Below are positions 3,902 through 43,255 of a DNA stretch of 58,959 nucleotides, in pieces. The stretch's first letter is position 1, and every line of letters starts with the position of its first letter. Source of the DNA: Longimicrobiales bacterium (GTDB lineage: Bacteria > Gemmatimonadota > Gemmatimonadetes > Longimicrobiales > RSA9); contig DATCLK010000025.1 in the NCBI GenBank assembly GCA_036563975.1, positions 1-58,959 on the forward strand, read 5' to 3'. Below the pieces are notes generated by a model. That model was not told the DNA's origin. It was given only the letters and a program-made list of their open reading frames with translations, and did no database searches. Both the position numbers and the translations under genes were made by a program.

Positions 3902-5341
3902 TCAGTCGATGCCGGCGCTCGGCTCGACCTCGGCCGGTGATGGCGCGGCGGCGCGCCGCTCCTCGAGCAGCGCGTTGGTTTCCCTGACAACGACGCCGGA
4001 GAGCAGGATGAGGCCGATCAGGTTGGGGATGGCCATGGCGCCGTTCATGATGTCGCTGAACGTCCAGACGAGCTGGAAGCCGGTGGTGTGCTCGAGCTCG
4101 AGGACCCAACAGCCGACGAAGGTCGCGATGACGAAGAGGACGCGGTAGGGGATGATGGCGCGGACGCCGAGCAGGTACTCGATGGCGCGCTCGCCGTAGT
4201 AAGCCCAGCCGAGGACGGTGGAGAAGGCGAAGAGGGCGAGGCCGATGGAGACGATGTGCTGGCCCCACTCGCCGGGGAGGCCGGTCTGGAAAGCGGCCAT
4301 GGTGAGCGGCGCGCCGGTGAGCGCCTGGCCGGTCAGGGGGTCGGTCCGAGTCCACGCGCCGGTGGCGATGATGGTCAAGCCGGTAATGGAGCAGACAATG
4401 ATCGTGTCGATGAAGGTCTGGGTCATCGAGACGAGGGCCTGGCTCGCAGGGTGACGGGTCTGGGCCGCTGCGGCGGCGATGCCGCCGGTGCCCAGGCCGG
4501 ATTCGTTGGAGAAGACGCCGCGGGCGAAGCCCCAGCGGACCGCGTCTCGCACGCTCGCGCCGAGGAAGCCGCCGATGGGCGCGGCCGGGGTGAAGGCCTC
4601 GCTGAGCACGTAGACGACCATCGAGGGGATGCCGCGCCAGTTGATGAGGAGGACGAGCAGGCCGCCGGCGATGTAGAACAAGATCATGAAGGGGACGAAG
4701 AAGCTCGTCACGCGGCCGATGCTCTTGATGCCGCCGAGGATGGTGAGTGCGGCGAAGGCGGCGAGAATGACGCCGGTCCAGAGTGGCGGCATGTTGAAGG
4801 AGCTGCGCAACGCGTCGGCCACGGAGTTGGCCTGGACCATGTTGCCGATGCCGAAGGCGGCGATGGCGGCAAAGAGTGCGAAGAGGAAGCCGAGGGTCTT
4901 GCCGAATGGTCCGCCGATGCCGCGGGAGAGGTAGTACATGGGTCCGCCGGCCATGTTGCCGAGGGCGTCGACGACGCGGTAGCGGACGCCGAGCACGGCC
5001 TCGGAGTACTTGGTGGCCATGCCGAAGAGGCCGGTGACCCACATCCAGAAGAGGGCGCCGGGTCCACCGGAGGCGATGGCGGTGGCGACGCCTGCGATGT
5101 TCCCGACGCCGACCGTCGCGGCGAGGGCGGTCATGAGGGCCTGGAAGTGGGAGATGTCGCCCTCAGCGCCCTCCTCCTTTCGCTTGATGAAGGCGAGCCA
5201 GAGCGAGTGCTTGAGCTCGCGGAACTGGAGGCCGCGCAGCAGGATGGTGAGGAAGACGCCGGTGCCCACCAGGAGCAGGATGGTGGGGAGGCCCCAGACG
5301 ATGTTGCTGATGCGGGCGAGGAAGAGCTGCGCGTTCTCCAT
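3902..5341 (-). CDS. sodium:alanine symporter family (AGCS) amino-acid carrier
   Basis: Start [30 protein letters not shown]. Multiple TM segments and AgcS-like blocks ([25 protein letters not shown]). ATG at 5339-5341. The track ORF has 35 extra upstream codons. Confidence 0.9.
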
Positions 5342-7696: not shown

Positions 7697-9115
7697 TTGT
7701 TGAACTCACCACAACCAGGGCGTACCGAGGGAGAGGTGCGGCGCGACCCGGTCGGGGGACGGGGACAGCGCGAACTGGACATCGCGCGGGAGATCGCACA
7801 GGCGTTCCTGAATGCGACGCGCGCGGTCGAGGTGTACCGTCTCGCGCTGGCGCGTGTCACGCCGCTGGTGGGAGCGACCTTCAGCTCCGTGTTTCTGCGT
7901 GACCCCGCCGAGCCGCAGTTGCTCAAGCTGGCGTGTGCGCAGAACTGGCCGCAGTCCTCGGCCCGCTTCCTCGGCCAGCTCCGGATCCGGGTCGGCCGCG
8001 GGCCGACGGGCCGGGCGGTGGAGGAGGGGCGCCCGATCGCCGTCGAGGATGTGTTCGCGGATCCGGCGCTGCTGGAGTGGTGGGAGCCGGCGCGGGAGCT
8101 CGGGTTCACGTCGTTGATCTCGCTGCCATTGCGGGTGCGGAGCGAGACGGTCGGCGCACTGAGCTTCTACTTCGAGCGGCAGCACCGCTTCGGCGAGGCG
8201 GAGTACGAGCTCCTGGAGCTGGTCGCGAACCAGCTCGCGGCGGCGGCGGAACGGGCGCAGTTGCTGGAGGACCTGCAGCAGGCGAACGCACAGCTCCAGC
8301 GGCAGAACGTGGAGCTGGCGGCGCGCGTCGAGGAAGCGGAGCAGGCGCGGCGGCTGAAGGAAGAGTTCCTGGCCAACATGAGCCACGAGCTGCGGACGCC
8401 GCTCACCGCGATCATGGGGTACGCGTACCTGCTGGCCGAGGGTCATACCGGCCCGCTGACGGAGCAGCAGGTGCAGTGCGTCCGGAAGATCGAGCGTGCG
8501 GGGACGGCGCTGCTCCGGCTGATCAGCGACCTGCTGGATCTCTCGCAACTCAAGCTGGGCCGCGCGCGGCTCGAGATCGCAGTGCACGATGCGGCGGCGC
8601 TCGCACGTCGCGCGGTGGAGATGGCGGGCGAACCTGCGCCGGGCGTCGTCTTCCGGCTGGTCGAAGAGGAGCCGCCGTTGCCCGTGGAGACGGACGCCGA
8701 GAAGGTGGTCAAGATCCTCGAGAACCTGCTGACCAACGCGTTCAAGTTCACGGCGGCAGGCGAGGTGAAGCTGACCGTCCGGCGCGGGCCAGCGGGGAAG
8801 GCGGCGTGGCCCGAGGCGGCGAGCCGCGGCGGGCCGGCAGAGCCGGCGACGGGCGGGTGGGTGGAATGGGCGGTCCAGGATACGGGCATCGGGATCGATG
8901 CCAGGGACCTGCCCATCATTTTCGACGAGTTCCGGCAGGTGGACGGCTCCTCGACGCGCCTGTACGGCGGGACGGGTCTGGGTCTGGCGCTGTCGCAGCG
9001 GCTGGCGCGGCTGCTGGGCGGCGAGATCACGGTGGAGAGCGAGCCGGGCCGCGGCTCCACCTTCACGCTGAGGCTGCCGGCGGCGCCCGTAGCGGCGGGC
9101 ATGCCAACGGCGTGA
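7697..9115 (+). CDS. GAF-domain sensor histidine kinase (cytoplasmic)
   Basis: N-terminal GAF-like region. Coiled linker. H-box EFLANMSHELRTPL. N, G1 and G2 boxes (NLLTNAFKFT, QDTGIGID, GGTGLGLALSQRLARLLGG). Start uncertain: the track start is TTG at 7697, with an alternative GTG at 7736. Confidence 0.8.
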   Translation: MLNSPQPGRTEGEVRRDPVGGRGQRELDIAREIAQAFLNATRAVEVYRLALARVTPLVGATFSSVFLRDPAEPQLLKLACAQNWPQSSARFLGQLRIRVGRGPTGRAVEEGRPIAVEDVFADPALLEWWEPARELGFTSLISLPLRVRSETVGALSFYFERQHRFGEAEYELLELVANQLAAAAERAQLLEDLQQANAQLQRQNVELAARVEEAEQARRLKEEFLANMSHELRTPLTAIMGYAYLLAEGHTGPLTEQQVQCVRKIERAGTALLRLISDLLDLSQLKLGRARLEIAVHDAAALARRAVEMAGEPAPGVVFRLVEEEPPLPVETDAEKVVKILENLLTNAFKFTAAGEVKLTVRRGPAGKAAWPEAASRGGPAEPATGGWVEWAVQDTGIGIDARDLPIIFDEFRQVDGSSTRLYGGTGLGLALSQRLARLLGGEITVESEPGRGSTFTLRLPAAPVAAGMPTA

Positions 9116-9335
9116 TGCCGCGGCACGCCGGGGTGGCGTGCAGACCCGGCCCCGGGCCGCCGCTGTCCATTCATCGCGCAATACCAATCGCGCATGCCGA
9201 TCGAGTGATGCCGCAGCGCGGCGGCGCAGAGTGCAGACCCGGTCCAGTAGGCCGCCGACCGTTTAGCGCGCATGCCAACCGACTGACACCGCAGCCCGCC
9301 GGTGCGGAGCGGCGTCGCCGTCCGCGCCGGGCTTG
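9100..9335. repeat. three degenerate tandem direct repeats of about 80-93 bp
   Basis: Units begin CATGCC at 9100, 9193 and 9271. R1 and R2 share GTGCAGACCCGG and CCGCCG. All three share CATGCCRAYCGRSTGAYRCCGCRGC. The first unit overlaps the last codons of the histidine kinase. The overlapping junk ORF shows a 3x peptide periodicity (HANGVMPRHAGVACRPGPG / HADRVMPQRGGAECRPGPV / HANRLTPQPAGAERRRRP). Confidence 0.55.
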
Positions 9336-9530: not shown

Positions 9531-11441
9531 TCAGTGCGCCGTGGTGACCTCCTCCTGGCCGTCGAAGCGCGCGCGCAAGACGGGCATCGGGCGCGGGCGC
9601 GTCATCGCCTCGGGCGAGAGGATCTCATCCAGCTCTTCGCGAGTCAGCCAGCCCTTCTCCAGTACCAGCTCGTAGACGCCCCTGTCGGTTTCCAGCGCTT
9701 CCTTGGCGACGGCGCTCGCGCGGTCGTACCCGATGAACGGGACGAGCGCGGTGACGATGCCGATGCTGCGCTCGAGCAGGTACCGGATGCGCTCGCGGTT
9801 CGCGGTGATGCCGAGCACGCACCGCTCGCGCAGCACGATGCAGGCCTGCACGAGCATGTCGATGGACTGGAAGATGTTGAAGGCGATGACGGGCTCGAAG
9901 ACGTTGAGCTGGAGCTGGCCGGCCTCGGCGGCCATCGTCACCGTGAGGTCGTTGCCGACGACCTGGTAGCAGACCTGGTTGACCACCTCGGGGATGACCG
10001 GATTGACCTTGCCCGGCATGATGCTGGAGCCCGGCTGCATGGGCGGCAGCGAGATCTCGCCGAGGCCCGCGCGCGGGCCACTGGAGAGCAGGCGGAGATC
10101 GTTGCAGATCTTGGAGAGCTTCGTCGCCACGCGTTTGAGCACGCCCGAGAGCTGGACGAAGGCGCCGGTGTCTGGCGTCGCCTCGACGAGGTCCGGGCTG
10201 GTGACGAGGGGAAGGCCGGTGATCTCGGAGAGGCGCTCGCGGACGAGGGGTGCATAGCGGGGGTCGGTGTTGATCCCCGTGCCGATGGCGGTTGCACCCA
10301 TGTTGATCTCGAGCATGAGCTTCGCCGCGTCCTGCAGCCGCTCGATGTCCTTGCCCAGCGTGACGCCGAAGGCGTGGAACTCCTGGCCGAGGGTCATGGG
10401 CACGGCGTCCTGGAGCTGGGTACGGCCGATCTTGACGATGTCCGCGAACTCGTCGGCCTTTTGCAGGAATGCGTCACGCAGGGCGGCGAGCGCGTCCACG
10501 AGCTCGGCGAGCGCCCAGGTCGCTGCGATCTTGAGCGCCGTGGGATAGACGTCGTTGGTGGATTGCGAGAGGTTGACGTGGTTGTTGGGGTGGACGATGT
10601 GGTACTCGCCGCGGCGCCGGCCGAGCAGCTCGAGCGCGCGATTCGCGATGACTTCGTTGGCGTTCATGTTGGTGGACGTGCCGGCACCGCCCTGGATGAC
10701 GTCCACGACGAACTGATCGTGCAGCGCTCCGCTGCGGATCTCGCGACACGCGGCGATGATGGCGTCGGCGATGCGTTCGTCGAGCAGGCCGAGCTCGCGG
10801 TTGGCAAGGGCGGCGGCCTCCTTGACGGCGGCGAGAGCGTTGATGAGGTGCGGGTACTGCGCGATGGTGATGCCGGTGATGGGGAAGTTCTCGACGGCGC
10901 GCAGCGTCTGGATGCCGTAGTATTCGCGGTCGGGGACCTCGCGTTCTCCGAGCAGGTCCTTCTCGCGCCGCAGCTCGCCGGACAGGTAGACCTGCTCGCG
11001 GCCGGCCAAGCGGGCGTTGGCGGCGCGCAGGCGACTCGCGATGATCTGGGCCGCGGCGATGGCGAGCCGGGCGTAGAGCGCGGGCCGCTCCTCGGCGATG
11101 CGCGTGATCGCCGCGCGAGGAAGCTCGACGGCCTCTACGGGTTCGGTGACGTAAGCGGATGTCGAGTGCGGATAGTCGTCCAGCAGCGTGCCCTCGGCGT
11201 AGGAATCGCCGGGGCCGAGCACCGCGAGGACCCGGTCGTGGCCGCGGTGCCGCTTGCGGATCTCGACCCGGCCGCGGATCAGGATGCCGAATTCGCGGCG
11301 GGGTTGGTTCTCGCGAAAGATGTAAGCGCCGGGTAGGTAGCAGATGACGCGTGCGAGCGAAGCCAGGTACTCGCGGTCCTCGGGCTGCACCTGCCGGCTG
11401 ATCACGTGGTTGCGGAGGGTCTTGAGGATGACGTCCTGCAT
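9531..11441 (-). CDS. aspA: cyclic-nucleotide-binding domain fused to class II aspartate ammonia-lyase (aspartase)
   Basis: Residues 1-150 carry a CAP-family cNMP-binding fold (GILIRGRVEI...LGPGDSYAEGTLLDDYPHSTSAYV). The remainder is aspartase/fumarase class II with the signature GSSIMPGKVNPVIPEVVNQ, plus KDLLGEREVP...YYGIQTLRAVENFPI. ATG at 11439-11441. Confidence 0.85.
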   Translation of the reverse strand: MQDVILKTLRNHVISRQVQPEDREYLASLARVICYLPGAYIFRENQPRREFGILIRGRVEIRKRHRGHDRVLAVLGPGDSYAEGTLLDDYPHSTSAYVTEPVEAVELPRAAITRIAEERPALYARLAIAAAQIIASRLRAANARLAGREQVYLSGELRREKDLLGEREVPDREYYGIQTLRAVENFPITGITIAQYPHLINALAAVKEAAALANRELGLLDERIADAIIAACREIRSGALHDQFVVDVIQGGAGTSTNMNANEVIANRALELLGRRRGEYHIVHPNNHVNLSQSTNDVYPTALKIAATWALAELVDALAALRDAFLQKADEFADIVKIGRTQLQDAVPMTLGQEFHAFGVTLGKDIERLQDAAKLMLEINMGATAIGTGINTDPRYAPLVRERLSEITGLPLVTSPDLVEATPDTGAFVQLSGVLKRVATKLSKICNDLRLLSSGPRAGLGEISLPPMQPGSSIMPGKVNPVIPEVVNQVCYQVVGNDLTVTMAAEAGQLQLNVFEPVIAFNIFQSIDMLVQACIVLRERCVLGITANRERIRYLLERSIGIVTALVPFIGYDRASAVAKEALETDRGVYELVLEKGWLTREELDEILSPEAMTRPRPMPVLRARFDGQEEVTTAH

Positions 11442-12395: not shown

Positions 12396-12477
12396 GCGGG
12401 TGTCGCTCCTGGCAGCGAAGTGCGCGGCGCCTGCCGCTGTGGCAAGCCCAGCAGGGCCTGCCACAGCGGCTCACGGA

Positions 12478-12765
12478 TCACCCCAGCGACAGCGAGGAGC
12501 TGCACGCGACGTCGATTCGGTCGCCATTCGACCCGATATAGACGCCCACCTGCGTCGAGAGGGTCATCCGCACGGTCACGATCGAGGTGCCCACCCAGAC
12601 GGGAGCGTTGAACTGCTCCCGGACTTCGTAGCTCCCGACGAGCGTCCACGTCCCCCCGCCGCTGCCGAGCGAGACCTCCGACGGGCAGTCCGCACGAGCG
12701 CTGGTGGCGAGCGCGAGGACGAGCGCGAGGGCGGACACGGCGGCTGGCAATCTGGAACGGCGCAT
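12478..12765 (-). CDS. small secreted 2-Cys protein, paralog A (95 aa precursor)
   Basis: Signal peptide MRRSRLPAAVSALALVLALATSARA followed immediately by DC. The mature part is about 70 aa, Gly/Ser/Thr/Val-rich, with a second Cys near the C-terminus (DVACSSS). ATG at 12763-12765. Confidence 0.6.
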   Translation of the reverse strand: MRRSRLPAAVSALALVLALATSARADCPSEVSLGSGGGTWTLVGSYEVREQFNAPVWVGTSIVTVRMTLSTQVGVYIGSNGDRIDVACSSSLSLG

Positions 12766-12818
12766 GGGAAACCCCCCGGTATGGCCCGCAGGTGCGGGCA
12801 CGTGTAGGTCGCGCCCGC

Positions 12819-13002
12819 GAGCCGCACCGGGTACTGCACGGTTCAGGGCTCGATTCGCTGCCGGTGCGGCCGGTCCGGGGAGGTGCGGGAGCCGGCCGGG
12901 ATGCATCCGGTTCATCTGGTGGCCACGCGGTCCGGCGTCGTCGTCGAGCCGGGCCGGCGCGTCTCGCGGCGGCCGTGGAGGAGTCACGCGGCGTGCCGGG
13001 AA
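12819..13002 (-). promoter_or_regulatory. conserved non-coding leader, copy A (about 180 nt, hairpin with CCUCC-containing loop in mRNA sense)
   Basis: Near-identical to 14860..15041. About 90% identity by eye over the central 140 nt, with one indel and a short divergent patch. Same orientation and same gap of about 55 nt to the downstream start codon. Contains the stem CGGCCGG/CCGGCCG at 12867-12873 and 12892-12898 around an 18-nt loop. Confidence 0.5.
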
Positions 13003-13362
13003 GCGAGGGCGCCGCCGGTCGTCCGTAACTCGTTGTGGCGCTTGGACGCGAGCGCCGTCCTCGCCCGGTGGAGCCATGCGCTGTGGGGACAGGCGGCGCG
13101 CATTGGCCAGCCGGTTCCGGACACTTCCGGTCAACGCGACTTCGGCAGGCCGCCATGCGTCGTGGAAGTGGATCGAGGCGGTGAGCGAGCGCGGCTCCGC
13201 CGCGGGCGTGCGGCGTTGCCGGCGCAAGAAAGAACAGCGCCTGCACGCGCGGCGCTGCGCAGCGCGTGCAGGCATGATTGCGGCCCGATCAGCCACGCCG
13301 CAGCGGGGGCGGTGGCATTCGGCTCCTGAGCCGCTGTCGGCGCAGGAACGCGCGCGGCCGGC

Positions 13363-14403
13363 TCAGCCGCGCCGGGCTTCCTCGAGGGCGAAGGCGTGGA
13401 GCCCGTCGTTCGTCACGAAGTACAGGACGTTGTCGCGCACGGTCATACTGCTGGCCCGGTGCGCGGCGTCCCATGGCCCGCTCTCGGCAGGGACACGCAC
13501 CTCGCGCAGCGTGTAGGTTGCAGGATCGATCAGGACGGCGACGACGTCTCCCGAGCTCAGTGCGATGAGCAATTGGCCGTCTGCCGTGGTCGTGAAGTCC
13601 TTGACCAGCGGCGTGTGGAGGACCCTGGTCCCCTGGCGGGCAAAGGCCTGGATCGCTTCCTGATGGCGCTGACGGATCGGGTCCAGCAGCCGGTCGGGCA
13701 GGCGGGCGGTCCGGCGTACCTCGCCCGCCTGGTCGAGGCGGAAGAGCACGCCCTCCCGGCCGTCGAAGACGTGGAATGCGCCGTCGGGCGTACGGACGAC
13801 GAGGAACTCGTCGCGCAGGCTCGCCCGGCCGGCGTCGCCTGCCGCCTCCAGCTCGAGCGCCGGGGGACGAGGGCCCCAGGGATGGCGGTCGTCTTCGGGC
13901 GTGATGACGGTGAAGTAGGCATCCGGGGAGGCGTGGGCGACGTGATAGACGGAGCCATCGGGGCCGACGGCGAAGCTGCGCAGCAACTCGCGGAGCTGCA
14001 CCTCGCGCACCAGTTCGCCATCGGGGCGGAAGAAGGAGACGCGCTGATTCGTCAGGTCGCCGACGACGATGAGGCCGTTCCAGCTCACGAGGCCGAAGGG
14101 GGCCTGGAACTCTCCGGGCCCCGCGCCGCTGCGGCCGAAACGGTGCAGCAGGTCGAGCCGCGTGTCGAAGAGCGCGATGCGGTCGTCGTCGACGTCGGAG
14201 ACGACGAGGGTGTCGCCGAGCAGTCGGATGCGAAGCGGCCTGACGAGCGGGAACGAGTCGTCCTCGATGGCGGCGACGCGTCTGGCGAGGAGCTCGCGAA
14301 CGACGAGCGGCGGCCCGCCGATGCCGGTGGTGAGTTCGTCACGGGAGTCGAGTGCGCTGCAGGCCGCGAGGAGTGGCAGGGCGAGGAGGATGCGGGTGCG
14401 CAT
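13363..14403 (-). CDS. lipoprotein with NHL/beta-propeller-type repeats
   Basis: Start MRTRILLALPLLAACSALDS, with lipobox LAAC. Repeated motifs of the form DGxLxVxD / GxGPGEFxxPxGL typical of NHL/TolB-like propeller blades. This is the true gene inside the artefactual 1011-aa track ORF 13363..16398. Confidence 0.7.
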   Translation of the reverse strand: MRTRILLALPLLAACSALDSRDELTTGIGGPPLVVRELLARRVAAIEDDSFPLVRPLRIRLLGDTLVVSDVDDDRIALFDTRLDLLHRFGRSGAGPGEFQAPFGLVSWNGLIVVGDLTNQRVSFFRPDGELVREVQLRELLRSFAVGPDGSVYHVAHASPDAYFTVITPEDDRHPWGPRPPALELEAAGDAGRASLRDEFLVVRTPDGAFHVFDGREGVLFRLDQAGEVRRTARLPDRLLDPIRQRHQEAIQAFARQGTRVLHTPLVKDFTTTADGQLLIALSSGDVVAVLIDPATYTLREVRVPAESGPWDAAHRASSMTVRDNVLYFVTNDGLHAFALEEARRG

Positions 14404-14471
14404 GGTGCCTCGTCGGGTTGGGGTCTGATGCTGTCGGGCGGCCGGTCGAGCCGGCCGCCCGAGCCGCACGA

Positions 14472-14807
14472 TCAGCGCCGGCTGTAGTTCCTGCAGTCCA
14501 CCTCCCAGATCTCGCCGTTGCTCATCTGATAGTGGCCGATCTGATACGTGTACGTGATCGTGTTGGTCCGGGTGTACGAGCCGGAGCCCGAGGCGCCGGC
14601 CCCGCCCGGCCCGCTGACGCCTGCGCTGAAGGTCACCGTCTGGGTGACGGTCTCGGTCACCGTCGTGGTCCCGAGCAGGGTGCCGGTATTGGGCGAACTG
14701 TTGATGCCGGTGGAGATGTAGGGAGCGCAGTCCGCCCATGCCCGGGCGGCGACAGCGAGGACGAGGGCGAGGGCGGGCGCGACGGTGCGCAGAGTGGTGC
14801 GATTCAT
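14472..14807 (-). CDS. small secreted 2-Cys protein, paralog B (111 aa precursor)
   Basis: Signal peptide MNRTTLRTVAPALALVLAVAARAWA followed by DC. Thr/Gly/Ser-rich mature part (TTTVTETVTQTVTF...) with a C-terminal Cys (EVDCRNY). Same architecture as 12478..12765. ATG at 14805-14807. Confidence 0.6.
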   Translation of the reverse strand: MNRTTLRTVAPALALVLAVAARAWADCAPYISTGINSSPNTGTLLGTTTVTETVTQTVTFSAGVSGPGGAGASGSGSYTRTNTITYTYQIGHYQMSNGEIWEVDCRNYSRR

Positions 14808-14859
14808 GGGACGCCTCCCGATGGGGCCCGCGAGGCGGGCGTTGGTCGTTTCTGCCATC

Positions 14860-15041
14860 GAGCCGCACCGGGCAGAGGAGTCCGGGCTCGTGCGGCTGCC
14901 GGCTGCGGCCGGTCCGGGGAGGTGCGGGAGCCGGCCGGGATGCATCCGGTTCGTCTGGTGGCCACGCGGTCCGGCGTCGTCGTCGACCCGGGCCGGCGCG
15001 TCTCGCGGCGTGCGTGTCGAAGTCACGCGGCGTGCCGGGAG
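14860..15041 (-). promoter_or_regulatory. conserved non-coding leader, copy B
   Basis: See copy A. Lies between the sigma54 activator stop (15140) and the paralog B start (14807). The same hairpin is present at 14908-14914 / 14933-14939 (CGGCCGG / CCGGCCG). Confidence 0.5.
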
Positions 15042-15139
15042 GCCACACGGGCGCGCTGATTCGTGCAAGGGCCCATGACTCAAGGAATTGATGGCGGCTC
15101 GTGCGTTTTGGGGCCATAGCTCGACGGGACACGCGGTGG

Positions 15140-16309
15140 TCAGCGGCCGGCCGCTTCCGGCTGCTTGTGGGCATCGAGGCCGAGGTGCCGGAGCTTGAGG
15201 CGAAGCGTGTTGCGGGCCATGCCGAGGGCGGCGGCAGCGCGGGTCTTGTTGCCGCGGCAGAGGCGGAGTGCTTCCTCGATGCGGCGGCGCTCTTCGTCCG
15301 CAGAGCCGTAGAAGGAGTAGCGGACGCGGGGGAGTATGCGATGCGCGCGTGCGCCGTCGGTGTCCGGCAGGCCCGTGGCGGCGGTGCCGGGTGGCAGCGC
15401 GGCGTAGGGCGCGAGGTGCTGAGGTTGAGGCGCGAGGTGCTCGTGGATCGCGGGCGCGTGACCATGGGGCGGTGGCGGGCTGGTGAGGGTGGTGGGGAGG
15501 TGTGCGACGCCGATGGTGGCGGAGTCGCAAGCGAGGACGGCGGCCTCGACGGCGTGGGCGAGCTCGCGGATGTTGCCGGGCCAGGTGTAGGCGTGCATGC
15601 GTGCGAGTGCAGCAGGAGAGAAGGCGCGGGCGGGCCTCTGGTAGCGCGCGGCGTAGTGATCGAGGAAGTGACGCGCGAGGAACTCGAGGTCGCCGTCGCG
15701 GTCGCGGAGCGGGGGCAGGCGGTAGGAGAGCACGAGCAGGCGATGGTAGAGATCGCGGCGGAAGCGGCGTTCGGCGACGGCGCGCTCGAGGTCCACGCCG
15801 GCGGCGGCGATGATGCGGACGTCCACGCGCAGCGTCCGTTCGCCGCCGAGGCGGCGGATCTCTCCGTCCTCGAGCGCGGTGAGGAGCTTGGCCTGGAGCG
15901 AAAGCGGCAGCTCTCCGACCTCGTCCAGGAAGAGTGTGCCGGCGCTGGCCTGCTCGAAGAGGCCGCGGTGGGCCTGGTGGGCGCCGGTGAACGCGCCGCG
16001 GGTGTGGCCGAAGAACTCGCTTTCGAAGAGGGTTTCCGGCACCCCGGCGCAATTGATGGCGACGAAGGGTGCGCGGGCGCGGCGCGAGCATTCGTGGATG
16101 GCGCGGGCGAGGAGGCCCTTGCCGGTTCCGGTCTCGCCGGTGAGGAGGACGGGGGCGTCGACGGCCGCGGCGCGGCGGCCGAACTCACGGAGCGCGGCGG
16201 CGGCGGCGCTGCGTCCCAGGATGCGATCGAGGGCGTCCACGGGTCGGTTCGGGGAATCGGTTTGCGGGTGTCGCGGCGCAGGATGGCGTGGCGGGCTGGG
16301 CGAGGCCAT
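15140..16309 (-). CDS. sigma54-dependent transcriptional activator (AAA+ EBP with Fis-type HTH) lacking an N-terminal sensory domain
   Basis: Walker [15 protein letters not shown] motif ([12 protein letters not shown]). Arginine-finger region. C-terminal HTH ([26 protein letters not shown]). The AAA+ core begins about 25 aa after the chosen ATG (16307-16309). The further upstream in-frame sequence is Pro/Arg junk. Confidence 0.85.
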
Positions 16310-16668
16310 AGGTGGACGGGTCGGTGCGCCGCCCGGGGGCTCGTGGGTGCCGACGCGCGGTGCGGGACGTGCGAGCGGCTCGGGCCGTCGCGAACCACGG
16401 GCGGCCGAGCGCCGGGGAGAACGCCCGCGACGGCAGATCGGGCAAGGGTGGCGCTGTCCCCGCCTCAAGGTTAGGTTTGGGGCGAATCGTTTTCATTGAA
16501 TCTGGAGGTCGGACGGGCGCCCGGAGGGGTCGCCCGGCACGAAGATAGATCGGGGCGCCGTCGGCGCGCGTCGGCCTCGAGCGAGGCGATTCGCGCGGCG
16601 GGGCGGCGGGCCCATTGTTCCGGGCGGTGGGGGAGCTGCCCGGTGGCGCGAACCAGGAGATCGTCGAG

Positions 16669-41270: not shown

Positions 41271-42992
41271 TCAGTTCCTCTTGCTGGCCGCGACCTGCTC
41301 TGCCAGTCGCAGCGCGGCGTACGCGTTCACGATGCCGCCCGTGGTGGACATCTCGCCGAAGCGCGTCGTGGCCAGCATCTCGCCCGGCCGCGCGACGGTG
41401 ACGTCGGTGTACCGCGTCGCGGATTCGAGGATGATGCGCTTCACGTCCGCGGCGTCGAGCTCCGGGTAGTACGCCATGATCAGCGCCGCCAGGCCCGTCA
41501 CGACGGGCGCGGCCATGCTGGTTCCGGAGAACGGCCGGTACTGGTCGTCCGGCACCGTCGAGAGGATGTCCACGCCCGGCGCGAACACGTCCACGTGGCC
41601 TGAGCCGTAGTTGCTGAAGGGCGCCGCGAGCCGGTCGCGGCCCTGCCACGAAGAGGCGCCCACCTCGATCCAGAGACGGGCGGTGTCGCCATCCAGGTAG
41701 AAGCGATTGGGGAAGTTCGACGCCGAGCGCAGGTCCTCCCCATCGTTGCCGGCGCCGTGCACCAGCAGCACGCCCTTCTCCTCGGCGTAGCGCACGGCCG
41801 CGTCCACCGCCTCCTTGTGCGGCGAGAAGGACTTGCCGAAGCTCATGTTGATGATGTGCGCGCCGTTGTCGACGGCGTAGCGGATCGCGTTGGCAACGTC
41901 CTTGTCGCGCTCGTCGCCGTCCGGCACCGCGCGGATGACCATGATGCGGACCGCGGGTGCGATGCCGTCGACGCCGAGGCCGTTGCCGCGCACCGCGGCG
42001 ATGATGCCGGCCACGTGCGTGCCGTGCGTGGCGTCGGGTCCCCGCACGTCGCCATTACCGTAGGTGCGCTCGGCGAGATCGGTGGTGTCATCCCCGACGA
42101 GCGGGCGCGGGTTGAACGCGGGGTTGAGGCCGAACTTCTCCAGCGCCTCGAGCCGCTCGAGCTCCTCCTCGATGACCTCCGGCGTGATGCCGTTCTGCGC
42201 GAGCTGGAGGAACGCGGCACGCGCCTGCTGGATGTCCTGGCGCGGCGAAGAAATGGCAGCGACGCGCTCGACGGTGAGCGAATCGGTGCCCAGGTGCTGC
42301 CGGAGGAGGGCGGTGAACCGGTCCATCGCCGACGCCACTCGGCGCACCTGCTGGAGCATCTGCGCCGTTTCTTCGCGCTCGCGGATGTAGGCCGCGCGGA
42401 TCTCGCGGTAACGCTCGTAGGCAGCGCGGGCCTCCGGAGAGAGCGTGTCCGGGTCCGCGCCGGTGAAGCGGACGCTGTCCCGAGCGTAGAGGCGGGTCAC
42501 CTCGTAGGTGTCCTTGTCGACGTGCCGTCCATCCGGCGAACCGATGAAGTTCCAGCCGTGGACGTCGTCGGCGTAGCCGTTGCCGTCATCGTCCCGTCCG
42601 TTGCCGGGGATCTCGTCCTCGTTGACCCAGATGTTGGCCCGCAGGTCCTCGTGATCCGTGTCGATCCCGGAGTCGATGACGCCGACCACGACGGTCCGCC
42701 TCGGCTGCTTGCCGGCCAGCAGCTCGCGGTACGCCCGCTCGACGCTGGCGCCAAAGATGCCGTCAGTGTCGGGATCCTTCAGCCACCAGGCCTCGGGCGC
42801 TGTGGCCGGAGCGTCCGTCGCGCCGGCGGGCGGGGCCTCGCGTGCGGGCGGGGGCGCGGAGGTGGTGGGCTCGGCGGTGCGCGTGGGCCGTTCCGGCGCG
42901 ACGGTGGACGGGCCGTCCGCGGTCCGGGCGGGTGCGCAGGCGCCGATCCCGAGGAGAGCGGCGAGGAACAGAACGGGCAATGGCCTCATCAT
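41271..42992 (-). CDS. S8-family subtilisin-like serine peptidase, lipoprotein or secreted
   Basis: Start MMRPLPVLFLAALLGIGACA. Catalytic triad blocks VGVIDSGID (Asp), HGTHVAGII (His), GTSMAAPVVTG (Ser). Confidence 0.85.
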   Translation of the reverse strand: MMRPLPVLFLAALLGIGACAPARTADGPSTVAPERPTRTAEPTTSAPPPAREAPPAGATDAPATAPEAWWLKDPDTDGIFGASVERAYRELLAGKQPRRTVVVGVIDSGIDTDHEDLRANIWVNEDEIPGNGRDDDGNGYADDVHGWNFIGSPDGRHVDKDTYEVTRLYARDSVRFTGADPDTLSPEARAAYERYREIRAAYIREREETAQMLQQVRRVASAMDRFTALLRQHLGTDSLTVERVAAISSPRQDIQQARAAFLQLAQNGITPEVIEEELERLEALEKFGLNPAFNPRPLVGDDTTDLAERTYGNGDVRGPDATHGTHVAGIIAAVRGNGLGVDGIAPAVRIMVIRAVPDGDERDKDVANAIRYAVDNGAHIINMSFGKSFSPHKEAVDAAVRYAEEKGVLLVHGAGNDGEDLRSASNFPNRFYLDGDTARLWIEVGASSWQGRDRLAAPFSNYGSGHVDVFAPGVDILSTVPDDQYRPFSGTSMAAPVVTGLAALIMAYYPELDAADVKRIILESATRYTDVTVARPGEMLATTRFGEMSTTGGIVNAYAALRLAEQVAASKRN

Positions 42993-43255
42993 GAGGGTTT
43001 CCTCCAGGGGCAAGGTCAGGGCCGCACGAGCACCGCGCGTGCCGCACGCGGGGGCGGCAAGACTTGTACAAGGCAGGCCGGCTCGGGTGCCATCCCGGGC
43101 CGGCCGCACGCTGCGGGGGCCTCATGGCCCGTCGCGTCGACGGGTCGGGCACGGCGACGAGGCGGTCTCCACCGCAGCCCGGCTCCCCGCCCGGAACGGA
43201 GCTTGCGCGGCCGGAGCGCTGCGGCCCTGCCGGGGCTCGACGGGAACGGTGCCTG

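Follow-up and report, generated by a model that had tools for sequence, protein, structure and literature searches.

Why does one stretch of non-coding DNA stand almost unchanged ahead of two small genes whose protein products have little sequence in common, and what does it do there? The question is raised by the window analyzed here (the whole stretch of DNA, 59 kb), a 72%-GC contig from a Longimicrobiales (Gemmatimonadota) MAG. On its minus strand, read 5′ to 3′, the locus consists of a sigma-54 activator gene, element B, gene B, an NHL-like lipoprotein gene, ~360 nt of non-coding DNA, element A, gene A, and a DsbA-like gene.

15140..16240, minus strand: sigma-54 enhancer-binding protein gene (366-aa gene call; PF00158, E 4e-64; PF02954)
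14808..15048, minus strand: element copy B, comprising block 1 and the leader and ending immediately 5′ of the ATG of B (nhmmer match 15048-14811 and alignments)
14472..14807, minus strand: small gene B, encoding a secreted protein of 111 aa that has two invariant Cys
14436..14460, minus strand: hairpin after small gene B, GGGCGGCCGG-N5-CCGGCCGCCC, preceding the NHL-like lipoprotein gene
13363-14403, minus strand: NHL-like lipoprotein gene, following small gene B
12766..13006, minus strand: element copy A, comprising block 1 and the leader and ending immediately 5′ of the ATG of A (nhmmer match 13006-12769 and alignments)
12478..12765, minus strand: small gene A, 95-aa paralogue of B
12433..12470, minus strand: long hairpin after small gene A, preceding the DsbA-like gene, with compensatory differences between the window and the syntenic contig L003
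11658-12395, minus strand: DsbA-like gene, following small gene A

The repeated element and its genes

The intervals first described, 12819-13002 and 14860-15041, align with 165/186 identities (88.7%). Identity reaches 94.3% (132/140, ungapped) between 12865-13004 and 14904-15043, and it is highest in an inner core, where the copies agree at 105 of 107 positions.

14904..15010, minus strand: core (gene-conversion tract), copy B
12865..12971, minus strand: core (gene-conversion tract), copy A

The preliminary description had taken ~180 nt to be nearly identical; the repeat is real, but its nearly identical part covers ~140 nt, and the 3′ ~45 nt of the earlier interval are ~68% identical between A and B. 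The same description had the two copies in the same orientation, with a gap of ~55 nt to each start codon, and this agrees with our measurements: the window contains two copies, each on the minus strand, and the 3′ end of each interval is 53 nt from the start codon (ATG at 12765 for A and at 14807 for B). Counted from block 1 up to the ATG, the whole element comprises ~240 bases per copy. It is the largest repeat family in the window, the other two-copy families being at most 57 nt long and at most 80% identical. In a public metagenome assembly of the same organism the contig breaks inside the repeat, which is typical assembler behavior at true repeats.

The activator gene lies directly upstream of element B in the same orientation. 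It encodes an AAA+ protein with the GAFTGA loop (encoded at 15980-15997) and a Fis-type helix-turn-helix (HTH) but without a sensory domain, and it is the sole sigma-54 activator in the 59-kb window, in which tblastn found no second copy. The paralogy of small proteins A and B is plain in the relatives, where both contain a common LIGTE...VGTY.M.DGSR..V.C pattern and two invariant cysteines. Within the window their resemblance is confined to the signal peptide (17/34 identities, E 0.12), so the earlier statement that the two proteins are similar in layout and share little sequence is borne out. The Sec-type signal peptide starts at the annotated Met, and the mature proteins are ~70 to 85 aa long. 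Searches of the small proteins against Pfam and NCBIfam gave no match; an AlphaFold model (pLDDT 72) is mostly one long beta-hairpin and has no PDB match with an E value below 0.7. The dN/dS values of the small proteins are 0.74 to 0.99 between the window and L003, indicating that they evolve almost neutrally (dN/dS 0.7 to 1.0). The hairpin 3′ of gene B has a stem longer by one T-A pair in a second group of genomes.

Neither copy of the element has a stop codon in frame with the gene downstream of it, and long open reading frames (ORFs) cover the region on both strands, though this is expected at 72% GC. Such open frames would suit translation of the element, as part of small proteins lengthened at the N terminus or as an upstream ORF of its own on one strand or the other, a reading to which we assign hardly any probability. 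Orthologous copies of the element differ by many 1- and 2-nt indels, which occur in all of its parts and disrupt every frame, and the element is therefore non-coding. Further, neither translation of the element matches a Pfam family, codon periodicity is absent 5′ of block 1, and gene callers place both starts at the ATG that follows a conserved Shine-Dalgarno (SD) sequence, GGGAGG, with the signal peptide beginning at that Met. The original judgment that the region is in frame and nonetheless non-coding is thus upheld.

Distribution, constraint, and gene conversion

Copies of the element were gathered from the contigs of protein homologues and by DNA-pattern scans, which yielded 19 distinct copies from ~12 genomes or metagenome contigs, all from one narrow Longimicrobiales clade and hence of shallow comparative depth. 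A cluster search of 5.8 billion found 20 homologue clusters for the small proteins and 9 for the NHL protein, all in the narrow clade, and no distant relatives of either. The genome-collection scan for the element returned one species representative, while the metagenome scan returned 24 loci, 7 of them true copies (2 re-found known loci) and the remainder chance matches. Gene order is identical in every related genome found, and the element occurs only 5′ of the A and B orthologues, in constant orientation and at two copies per genome. The preliminary description had proposed that absence of the element upstream of orthologues would point to a recent local duplication only; it is present upstream of both orthologues in every genome found. 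A dispersed repeat of the REP/MITE type is ruled out by the same pattern: each genome has two copies, which keep to these two genes and to a single orientation. Though of a familiar kind, the element is not represented in the databases, and it does not extend beyond one small clade.

Two forms of the element can be distinguished. The long form (~230 nt from block 1 to the ATG) comprises every B copy and, in the genome group to which the window belongs, the A copy as well. The short form (~137 nt) is the A copy of the six genomes of the second group; it is missing the central ~100 nt with its hairpin and retains block 1, the blocks that follow, the SD-proximal hairpin, and the SD.

Constraint on the element is apparent from the comparison of the window with L003, a syntenic MAG contig. 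The element is 91 to 92% identical between the two (~0.085 substitutions per site), compared with 90.5% for the NHL gene (third positions, 85%), 78% for the small genes, and 63% for the non-coding DNA 5′ of element A. With a dS of 0.22 to 0.33 for this pair, the divergence of the element is about one-third of the synonymous rate. In the comparison with the more distant L042, the core is still 77 to 80% identical, versus 60% for NHL third codon positions. The four copies of the window and L003 also carry a signature of conversion. Within the ~105-nt core, 4 sites are concerted between A and B inside a genome and 0 follow orthology; outside the core, 0 sites are concerted and 25 are orthologous (Fisher's test, ~4e-5, with boundaries picked after the data had been seen). 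Group-specific states common to A and B were found in both genome groups. Selection on the element and gene conversion had been offered as alternatives. Both act, because the core evolves concertedly and the flanks orthologously: purifying selection and recurrent gene conversion keep the two leaders alike.

The relatives also bear on how the repeat arose. In the second group, the region upstream of A around a motif that we call box 0 is homologous to the end of the activator gene and its downstream spacer at 4 of 5 loci (E 1e-8 to 1e-16), and the last codons and the stop codon of the activator are still recognizable there. Given these matches, the ancestral duplication took in the 3′ end of the activator gene, and the comparison shows a tandem duplication with its origin inside that end. 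The same homology is not found in L042, and BLAST detects no activator relic 5′ of A in the window or L003; in the window, judging from the relatives, it would have decayed to box 0 alone.

The conversion signature in the core, together with the presence of just two copies, would also fit an element with no function of its own, left behind passively by a recent local duplication or by gene conversion between the upstream regions of the paralogues. We consider this very improbable. The duplication is older than the split of all sampled genomes, and the element has been kept at both sites in every one of them. Its divergence is about a third of that at synonymous sites, and it is 91% identical where the adjacent decaying region is 63% identical. 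Conversion, which homogenizes paralogues within a genome, leaves the conservation between species unexplained.

Candidate promoter, upstream motif, and leader

In our estimate there is about an even chance that the element is a lineage-specific promoter and structured 5′ leader, switched on by the neighboring sigma-54 activator. It would serve two paralogous operons, one of small gene B and the NHL-like lipoprotein and the other of small gene A and the DsbA-like protein, as the core of a ~330-bp cis-regulatory module that is present twice. The candidate promoter is block 1.

15022..15036, minus strand: block 1, copy B, GGCACGCCGCGTGAC, candidate sigma-54-type -24/-12 box with TGA for TGC
12983..12997, minus strand: block 1, copy A, candidate sigma-54-type box

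Block 1 reads GGCAC(G/A)CCGC(G/A)TGAC, and all but its two R positions are invariant in 19/19 distinct copies; the GGCAC..CCGC..TGAC pattern has no other occurrence in the window or the related loci. The variable positions are the weak ones in the sigma-54 consensus. In the genome group of the window, similarity between A and B begins sharply a few bases 5′ of block 1. On its 3′ side ~11 variable bases are followed by a return of conservation, a pattern that would be expected around a start site. The GG, the CAC that follows it, and the T and G of the -12 element are correctly spaced, and the base after them is A instead of C in 19/19 copies. Block 1 departs from TGGCACGNNNNTTGCW at 4 of 12 specified positions, and its CCGC spacer is invariant, for which a sigma-54 box has no requirement. 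TGC at -12 is regarded as essential for sigma-54 promoters. Among sites that are functional or bound by sigma-54, a -12 element other than GC is found in STM0649.S (TGGCACGCCTTTTGATTA; TTGA), pspA (TTGT), hydN (GTGT), and glnH (TTTC) (PMC3844500, Table 3).

No canonical GG-N10-GC box proved to be conserved when the window, the elements, and all of the syntenic locus were scanned, except TGGCCCGCAACACGCT, which is coding constrained and sits in the HTH coding region of the activator gene, and a scan of the elements for sigma-70 promoters found none. A second GGCAC-like box, 33 nt 5′ of the ATG, was rejected: its GG is lost in L038, its spacing varies, and its -12 would be CA. Elsewhere, a sigma-54-like candidate, CGGCACGCGCGGTGCT, precedes a subtilase gene; considered as a genome-specific reference, it is no more than a lead.

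The upstream motif, box 0, is found near both elements and, in a similar form, at the activator gene itself.

16305..16319, minus strand: box 0-like motif at the activator, CCGTCCACCTATGGC, 65 nt 5′ of the GTG start
15113..15131, minus strand: box 0 upstream of B, TGTCCC-N7-CTATGGC, 95 nt before block 1 and just past the activator stop; candidate activator-binding site
13073..13091, minus strand: box 0 upstream of A, TGTCCC-N7-GCATGGC, 94 nt before block 1

The consensus TGTCCC-N6-7-YATGGC has 2 matches in the window (0.05 expected). At the activator gene the motif is better in L034, L038, L022, and L016, where GTGTCCC-N7-CTATGGC occupies the corresponding position. Box 0 lacks dyad symmetry and is degenerate 5′ of A in L003 and L042. 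Its position relative to block 1 (94/95 nt for A and B) is the same in the relatives, and the spacer contains 0 indels in 11 B and 6 A copies, with pairwise differences of 25 to 37%. Because the spacer is free of indels yet freely substituted, and lacks codon periodicity (two of the A copies contain stop codons), the fixed distance points to a constraint on DNA spacing, such as would hold an enhancer in place relative to a sigma-54 promoter. Enhancers are typically located 70 to 150 bp upstream of such promoters (PMC3844500). A small upstream ORF starting from an ATG inside box 0 was considered and discarded, given the missing codon periodicity and the stop codons in two A copies. The B spacer also contains ATCAATTCCTTGA (15080-15092), which we take to resemble an IHF site.

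Downstream of block 1, two hairpins are predicted in the leader.

14907..14936, minus strand: central GC-rich hairpin, copy B, GGCCGG-C-UCC ... GGA-CCGGCC (RNAalifold and pair counts)
14826..14840, minus strand: SD-proximal hairpin, copy B, GCCCGC-CUC-GCGGGC, followed by the SD GGGAGG at 14814-14819
12868..12897, minus strand: central GC-rich hairpin, copy A (RNAalifold and pair counts)
12784..12799, minus strand: SD-proximal hairpin, copy A, GCCCGC-ACCU-GCGGGC, followed by the SD-like GGGGGG at 12772-12777

The stem CGGCCGG/CCGGCCG with the loop CUCCCGCACCUCCCCGGA, which had been noticed at the outset, is found in both copies and is lengthened by three pairs past a one-base bulge (GGCCGG-C-NCC...GGN-CCGGCC). 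The N:N pair covaries (UA 6, GC 3, AU 2, GU 1, 0 broken), and since the extended pairing includes this covarying pair, the central hairpin is probably real. The covariation check gave a divided result for the leader as a whole: of the 58 pairs predicted by RNAalifold, 2 have double changes, 1 of them clean, while the other 56, in copies that are very similar to each other, are invariant or changed on one side. The SD-proximal hairpin lies 8 to 14 nt 5′ of the SD; its stem is invariant in 19/19 copies, and its loop is 3 or 4 nt long and of variable sequence.

The remaining proposals for the leader RNA fared less well. The Rfam covariance models (4,227 families) gave no match at gathering thresholds, and at E values up to 10 there were two chance-level hits, neither on the conserved blocks of the element. 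The sense strand is no more stable than its shuffles (z = -0.62; antisense, z = +0.09). An anti-Shine-Dalgarno switch had been suggested from CCUCC in the loop of the central hairpin, but this sequence is not conserved (CUGCUC in L042), and 7-mers complementary to the SD are at background frequency (1.5 per kb per strand in the genome) and at positions that differ among the copies. The suggested attenuator lacks a U-run, the hairpin being followed by GCAGCCGG, and a scan for intrinsic terminators found no terminator-like site in either copy. Moreover, the central domain with its hairpin is absent from the A copy of six related genomes and is not essential there.

We infer the binding partners, the start site, and the role of the leader as follows. 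The sensor-less activator would bind box 0 at the two operons and a third box 0 at its own gene. Acting over the fixed 94/95-bp spacer, it would activate RNA polymerase-sigma-54 on block 1, in which GGCAC-N6-TGA would form a -24/-12 box with A replacing C at -12. Transcription would start ~12 nt 3′ of block 1, where conservation returns, and the transcript would carry a GC-rich 5′ leader of ~200 nt, or ~105 nt in the six relatives whose A copies lack the central domain. The likely role of the two hairpins of this leader, the central one and the invariant one ahead of the RBS, would be in mRNA stability or translation and not in an anti-SD switch. The central domain would be optional and swapped between the operons by gene conversion. 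Selection and recurrent conversion over the ~105-nt core would keep the operons under the same control, and the secreted proteins would be free to diverge.

The main rival of this promoter-leader reading holds that the element works as RNA only. Transcription would begin further upstream, at box 0 or by read-through, and block 1 and the leader would together form a structured cis-regulatory RNA, for example, a ligand- or protein-sensing leader or a processing or stability element. We regard this as unlikely. It would account for the covarying pair, which includes a G-U state (A-C on the opposite strand), for the invariant SD-proximal stem with its loop of variable length, and, in the six short copies, for the potential of the 10 nt directly after block 1 to pair with the SD region. 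The short form also retains blocks 2 and 7, the closing helix according to RNAalifold, and box 0 with an upstream CTGACC loosely resembles a -35/-10 pair, box 0 being present 65 nt before the activator as well. Weighing on the other side are the lack of an Rfam match at E values up to 10, the z scores of -0.62 (sense) and +0.09 (antisense), the 56 of 58 predicted pairs without a double change, several of them broken in single copies, and the background frequency and inconsistent positions of the anti-SD matches. The G/A variation in block 1 breaks its small hairpin without compensation. The free substitution in an indel-free 95-nt spacer is hard to account for by RNA, the sigma-70-type scan was empty, and the sigma-54 activator would be left without a target promoter. 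A more far-reaching proposal keeps the promoter and regards the ~200-nt leader as structured regulatory RNA of a new class, either a sensor or a platform for protein binding, transcribed from a non-canonical TGA sigma-54 promoter, with the central domain as a portable module copied by gene conversion between paralogous operons. The central domain is indeed present 5′ of A in one genome group and missing in the other; we hold this proposal to be quite unlikely.

The core could also be read as DNA, an enhancer array whose palindromes GTGGCCAC, GGATGCATCC, and CCGGCCGG bind the activator, with the promoter between the core and the start codon; for this we see a small chance. These three perfect palindromes, 8 to 10 bp long, show no change in 12 of the 13 long copies, although by our own estimate about one 8-bp palindrome per 100 nt arises by chance at this GC content, which makes three of them weakly unusual. 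CCGGCCGG occurs twice in the control region of B against 0.27 per kb in the window, and sigma-54 enhancers can be downstream of or distant from their promoters (PMC3844500). Among the A copies, those of group 2 have a good box 0 and lack the core, and those of group 1 have the core and a weaker box 0 region. Against the array, the core is dispensable 5′ of A in six genomes, the covarying pair preserves a complementarity that a protein site does not need, and no GG-N10-GC is conserved 3′ of the core, the GGCAC-like box 33 nt from the ATG having lost its GG in L038.

Significance and comparison with known systems

To our knowledge, almost nothing is known about gene regulation in the Gemmatimonadota, and in the Longimicrobiales especially. 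The scope of the present case is narrow, one small clade with two sites per genome, and within it the locus offers what appears to be a compact, testable circuit composed of a sensor-less sigma-54 activator, an upstream motif repeated at three transcription units, a -24/-12 box that deviates from the canonical form, and a long conserved leader. It also illustrates cleanly how selection and conversion can hold a regulatory region constant while the secreted proteins that it presumably controls evolve near-neutrally. If block 1 is a true promoter, TGA at -12 can be the fixed state of a sigma-54 promoter throughout a clade.

Among catalogued RNAs, the entries that Rfam classifies as "Cis-reg; leader" likewise are conserved non-coding blocks right upstream of a gene, in fixed orientation and with GC-rich hairpins. 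Unlike them, the element matches 0 of 4,227 families, has one covarying pair, and is restricted to one narrow clade with two sites per genome. Concerted evolution through gene conversion is known from tufA/tufB and the rRNA operons, which are likewise mosaic, with paralogues more alike than orthologues inside the tract and flanks that follow orthology; unlike in those cases, the converted tract here is a ~105-nt non-coding regulatory core.

In the pln regulon of Lactobacillus plantarum, a conserved promoter/leader is repeated before each bacteriocin operon. As in the present locus, the operons of one locus encode small, fast-diverging secreted proteins with a common regulatory sequence and export signal, and a dedicated regulator is encoded nearby. 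The pln sequences, unlike those described here, are direct repeats for a response regulator 5′ of sigma-70 promoters, and the pln products are double-glycine-leader peptides, whereas the proteins of this locus are of the Sec type and without a fold match.

Sensor-less sigma-54 activators are known from pspA/PspF in enterobacteria and hrpL/HrpRS in Pseudomonas. In common with the candidate system described here, they have an AAA+ protein encoded alongside, which bears GAFTGA, ends in an HTH, and is devoid of a sensory domain; they likewise have a box of the form GG...TG(N) and, ~95 bp away at fixed spacing, a conserved upstream motif. A further shared trait is a copy of the motif at the activator's own gene, suggestive of autoregulation. 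The departure of the -12 element from GC also has counterparts in pspA (TTGT) and STM0649.S (TTGA) (PMC3844500). In contrast to pspA/PspF and hrpL/HrpRS, the candidate promoter described here has TGA at -12 in all copies and an invariant spacer inside the box, the putative enhancer motif is not a dyad, and the operons would be headed by an unusually long and strongly conserved leader of ~200 nt.

The small secreted proteins and the repeated element upstream

The paralogous small genes A and B, each of which is preceded by a copy of the repeated non-coding element, encode signal-peptide-bearing proteins with two invariant cysteines, for which no match was found in Pfam, NCBIfam or among PDB folds.

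Window 12478-12765 and 14472-14807, minus strand: small secreted proteins A and B, with homologues in the related loci L003, L034, L036, L038, and L042

The dN/dS ratio was 0.74 for protein A, 0.87 for protein B (0.99 in its mature part), and 0.27 for the NHL-like lipoprotein gene that neighbors the small genes. Judged by these ratios, the small secreted proteins are evolving near-neutrally or under diversifying selection. The family is tiny, comprising 20 clusters, all of them found in this clade.

The same organism is represented in a public metagenome (ENA assembly ERZ4232226), in which one contig (L001) ends and another (L002) starts within the repeated element.

L001 4310-4387 and L002 1-64: contig ends lying in the repeated element

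The break within the element is an independent sign of near-identity between copies A and B in the population.

Hairpins and an inverted repeat 3′ of the genes

Stem-loop sequences follow both small genes and, in the second group of genomes (those with a short A element), the NHL-like gene.

Window 14436-14460, minus strand: strong GC-rich hairpin after gene B
Window 12433-12470, minus strand: strong GC-rich hairpin after gene A
L034, about 5060-5130: conserved inverted repeat CCGCGCCGGG...CCCGGCGCGG, between the stop of the NHL-like gene and box 0 (candidate activator-binding motif) of A

The stems of the two hairpins carry compensatory changes between genomes, and no U-run follows either. 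Each looks like a 3′ stabilizer or a partial terminator, and could raise the expression of the small gene relative to that of its partner gene. The inverted repeat, with a loop of ∼20 to 27 nt, lies directly past the NHL-like gene and is conserved in the equivalent region of L035, L038, L042, L044, and L016; in L042, its outer pairs show compensatory differences. Its role may be that of a terminator between the B and A transcription units.

Features elsewhere in the window

Window 9531-11441, minus strand: aspartate ammonia-lyase/fumarase-type enzyme with an N-terminal cyclic-nucleotide-binding domain
Window 9096-9323: imperfect direct repeat in three copies, each about 57 nt long, in the gap downstream of this gene
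Window 16380-16400, minus strand: invariant stretch CCCAAACCTAAC, then GCCACC, upstream of the activator gene
Window 43029-43044, minus strand: CGGCACGCGCGGTGCT (GG-N10-GC), intergenic

The enzyme fusion, whose domains are taken from the Pfam families given for the identical gene in L002, is syntenic in all relatives. The adjoining repeats are 68 to 77% identical and are spaced by 93 and 78 nt.

The ∼400-nt region between the sigma-54 activator gene and the divergent POT-family peptide transporter gene contains CCCAAACCTAAC and GCCACC; the stretch is kept in both genome groups (L003, L034, L038, and L042), and the neighboring sequence is not conserved.

Located 37 nt upstream of the start codon of a subtilase-family lipoprotein gene (41271-42992; ATG at 42990-42992), CGGCACGCGCGGTGCT resembles block 1, the candidate −24/−12 promoter at the 5′ edge of the element, except at −12, and may represent, for this genome, a sigma-54 promoter of the canonical type.
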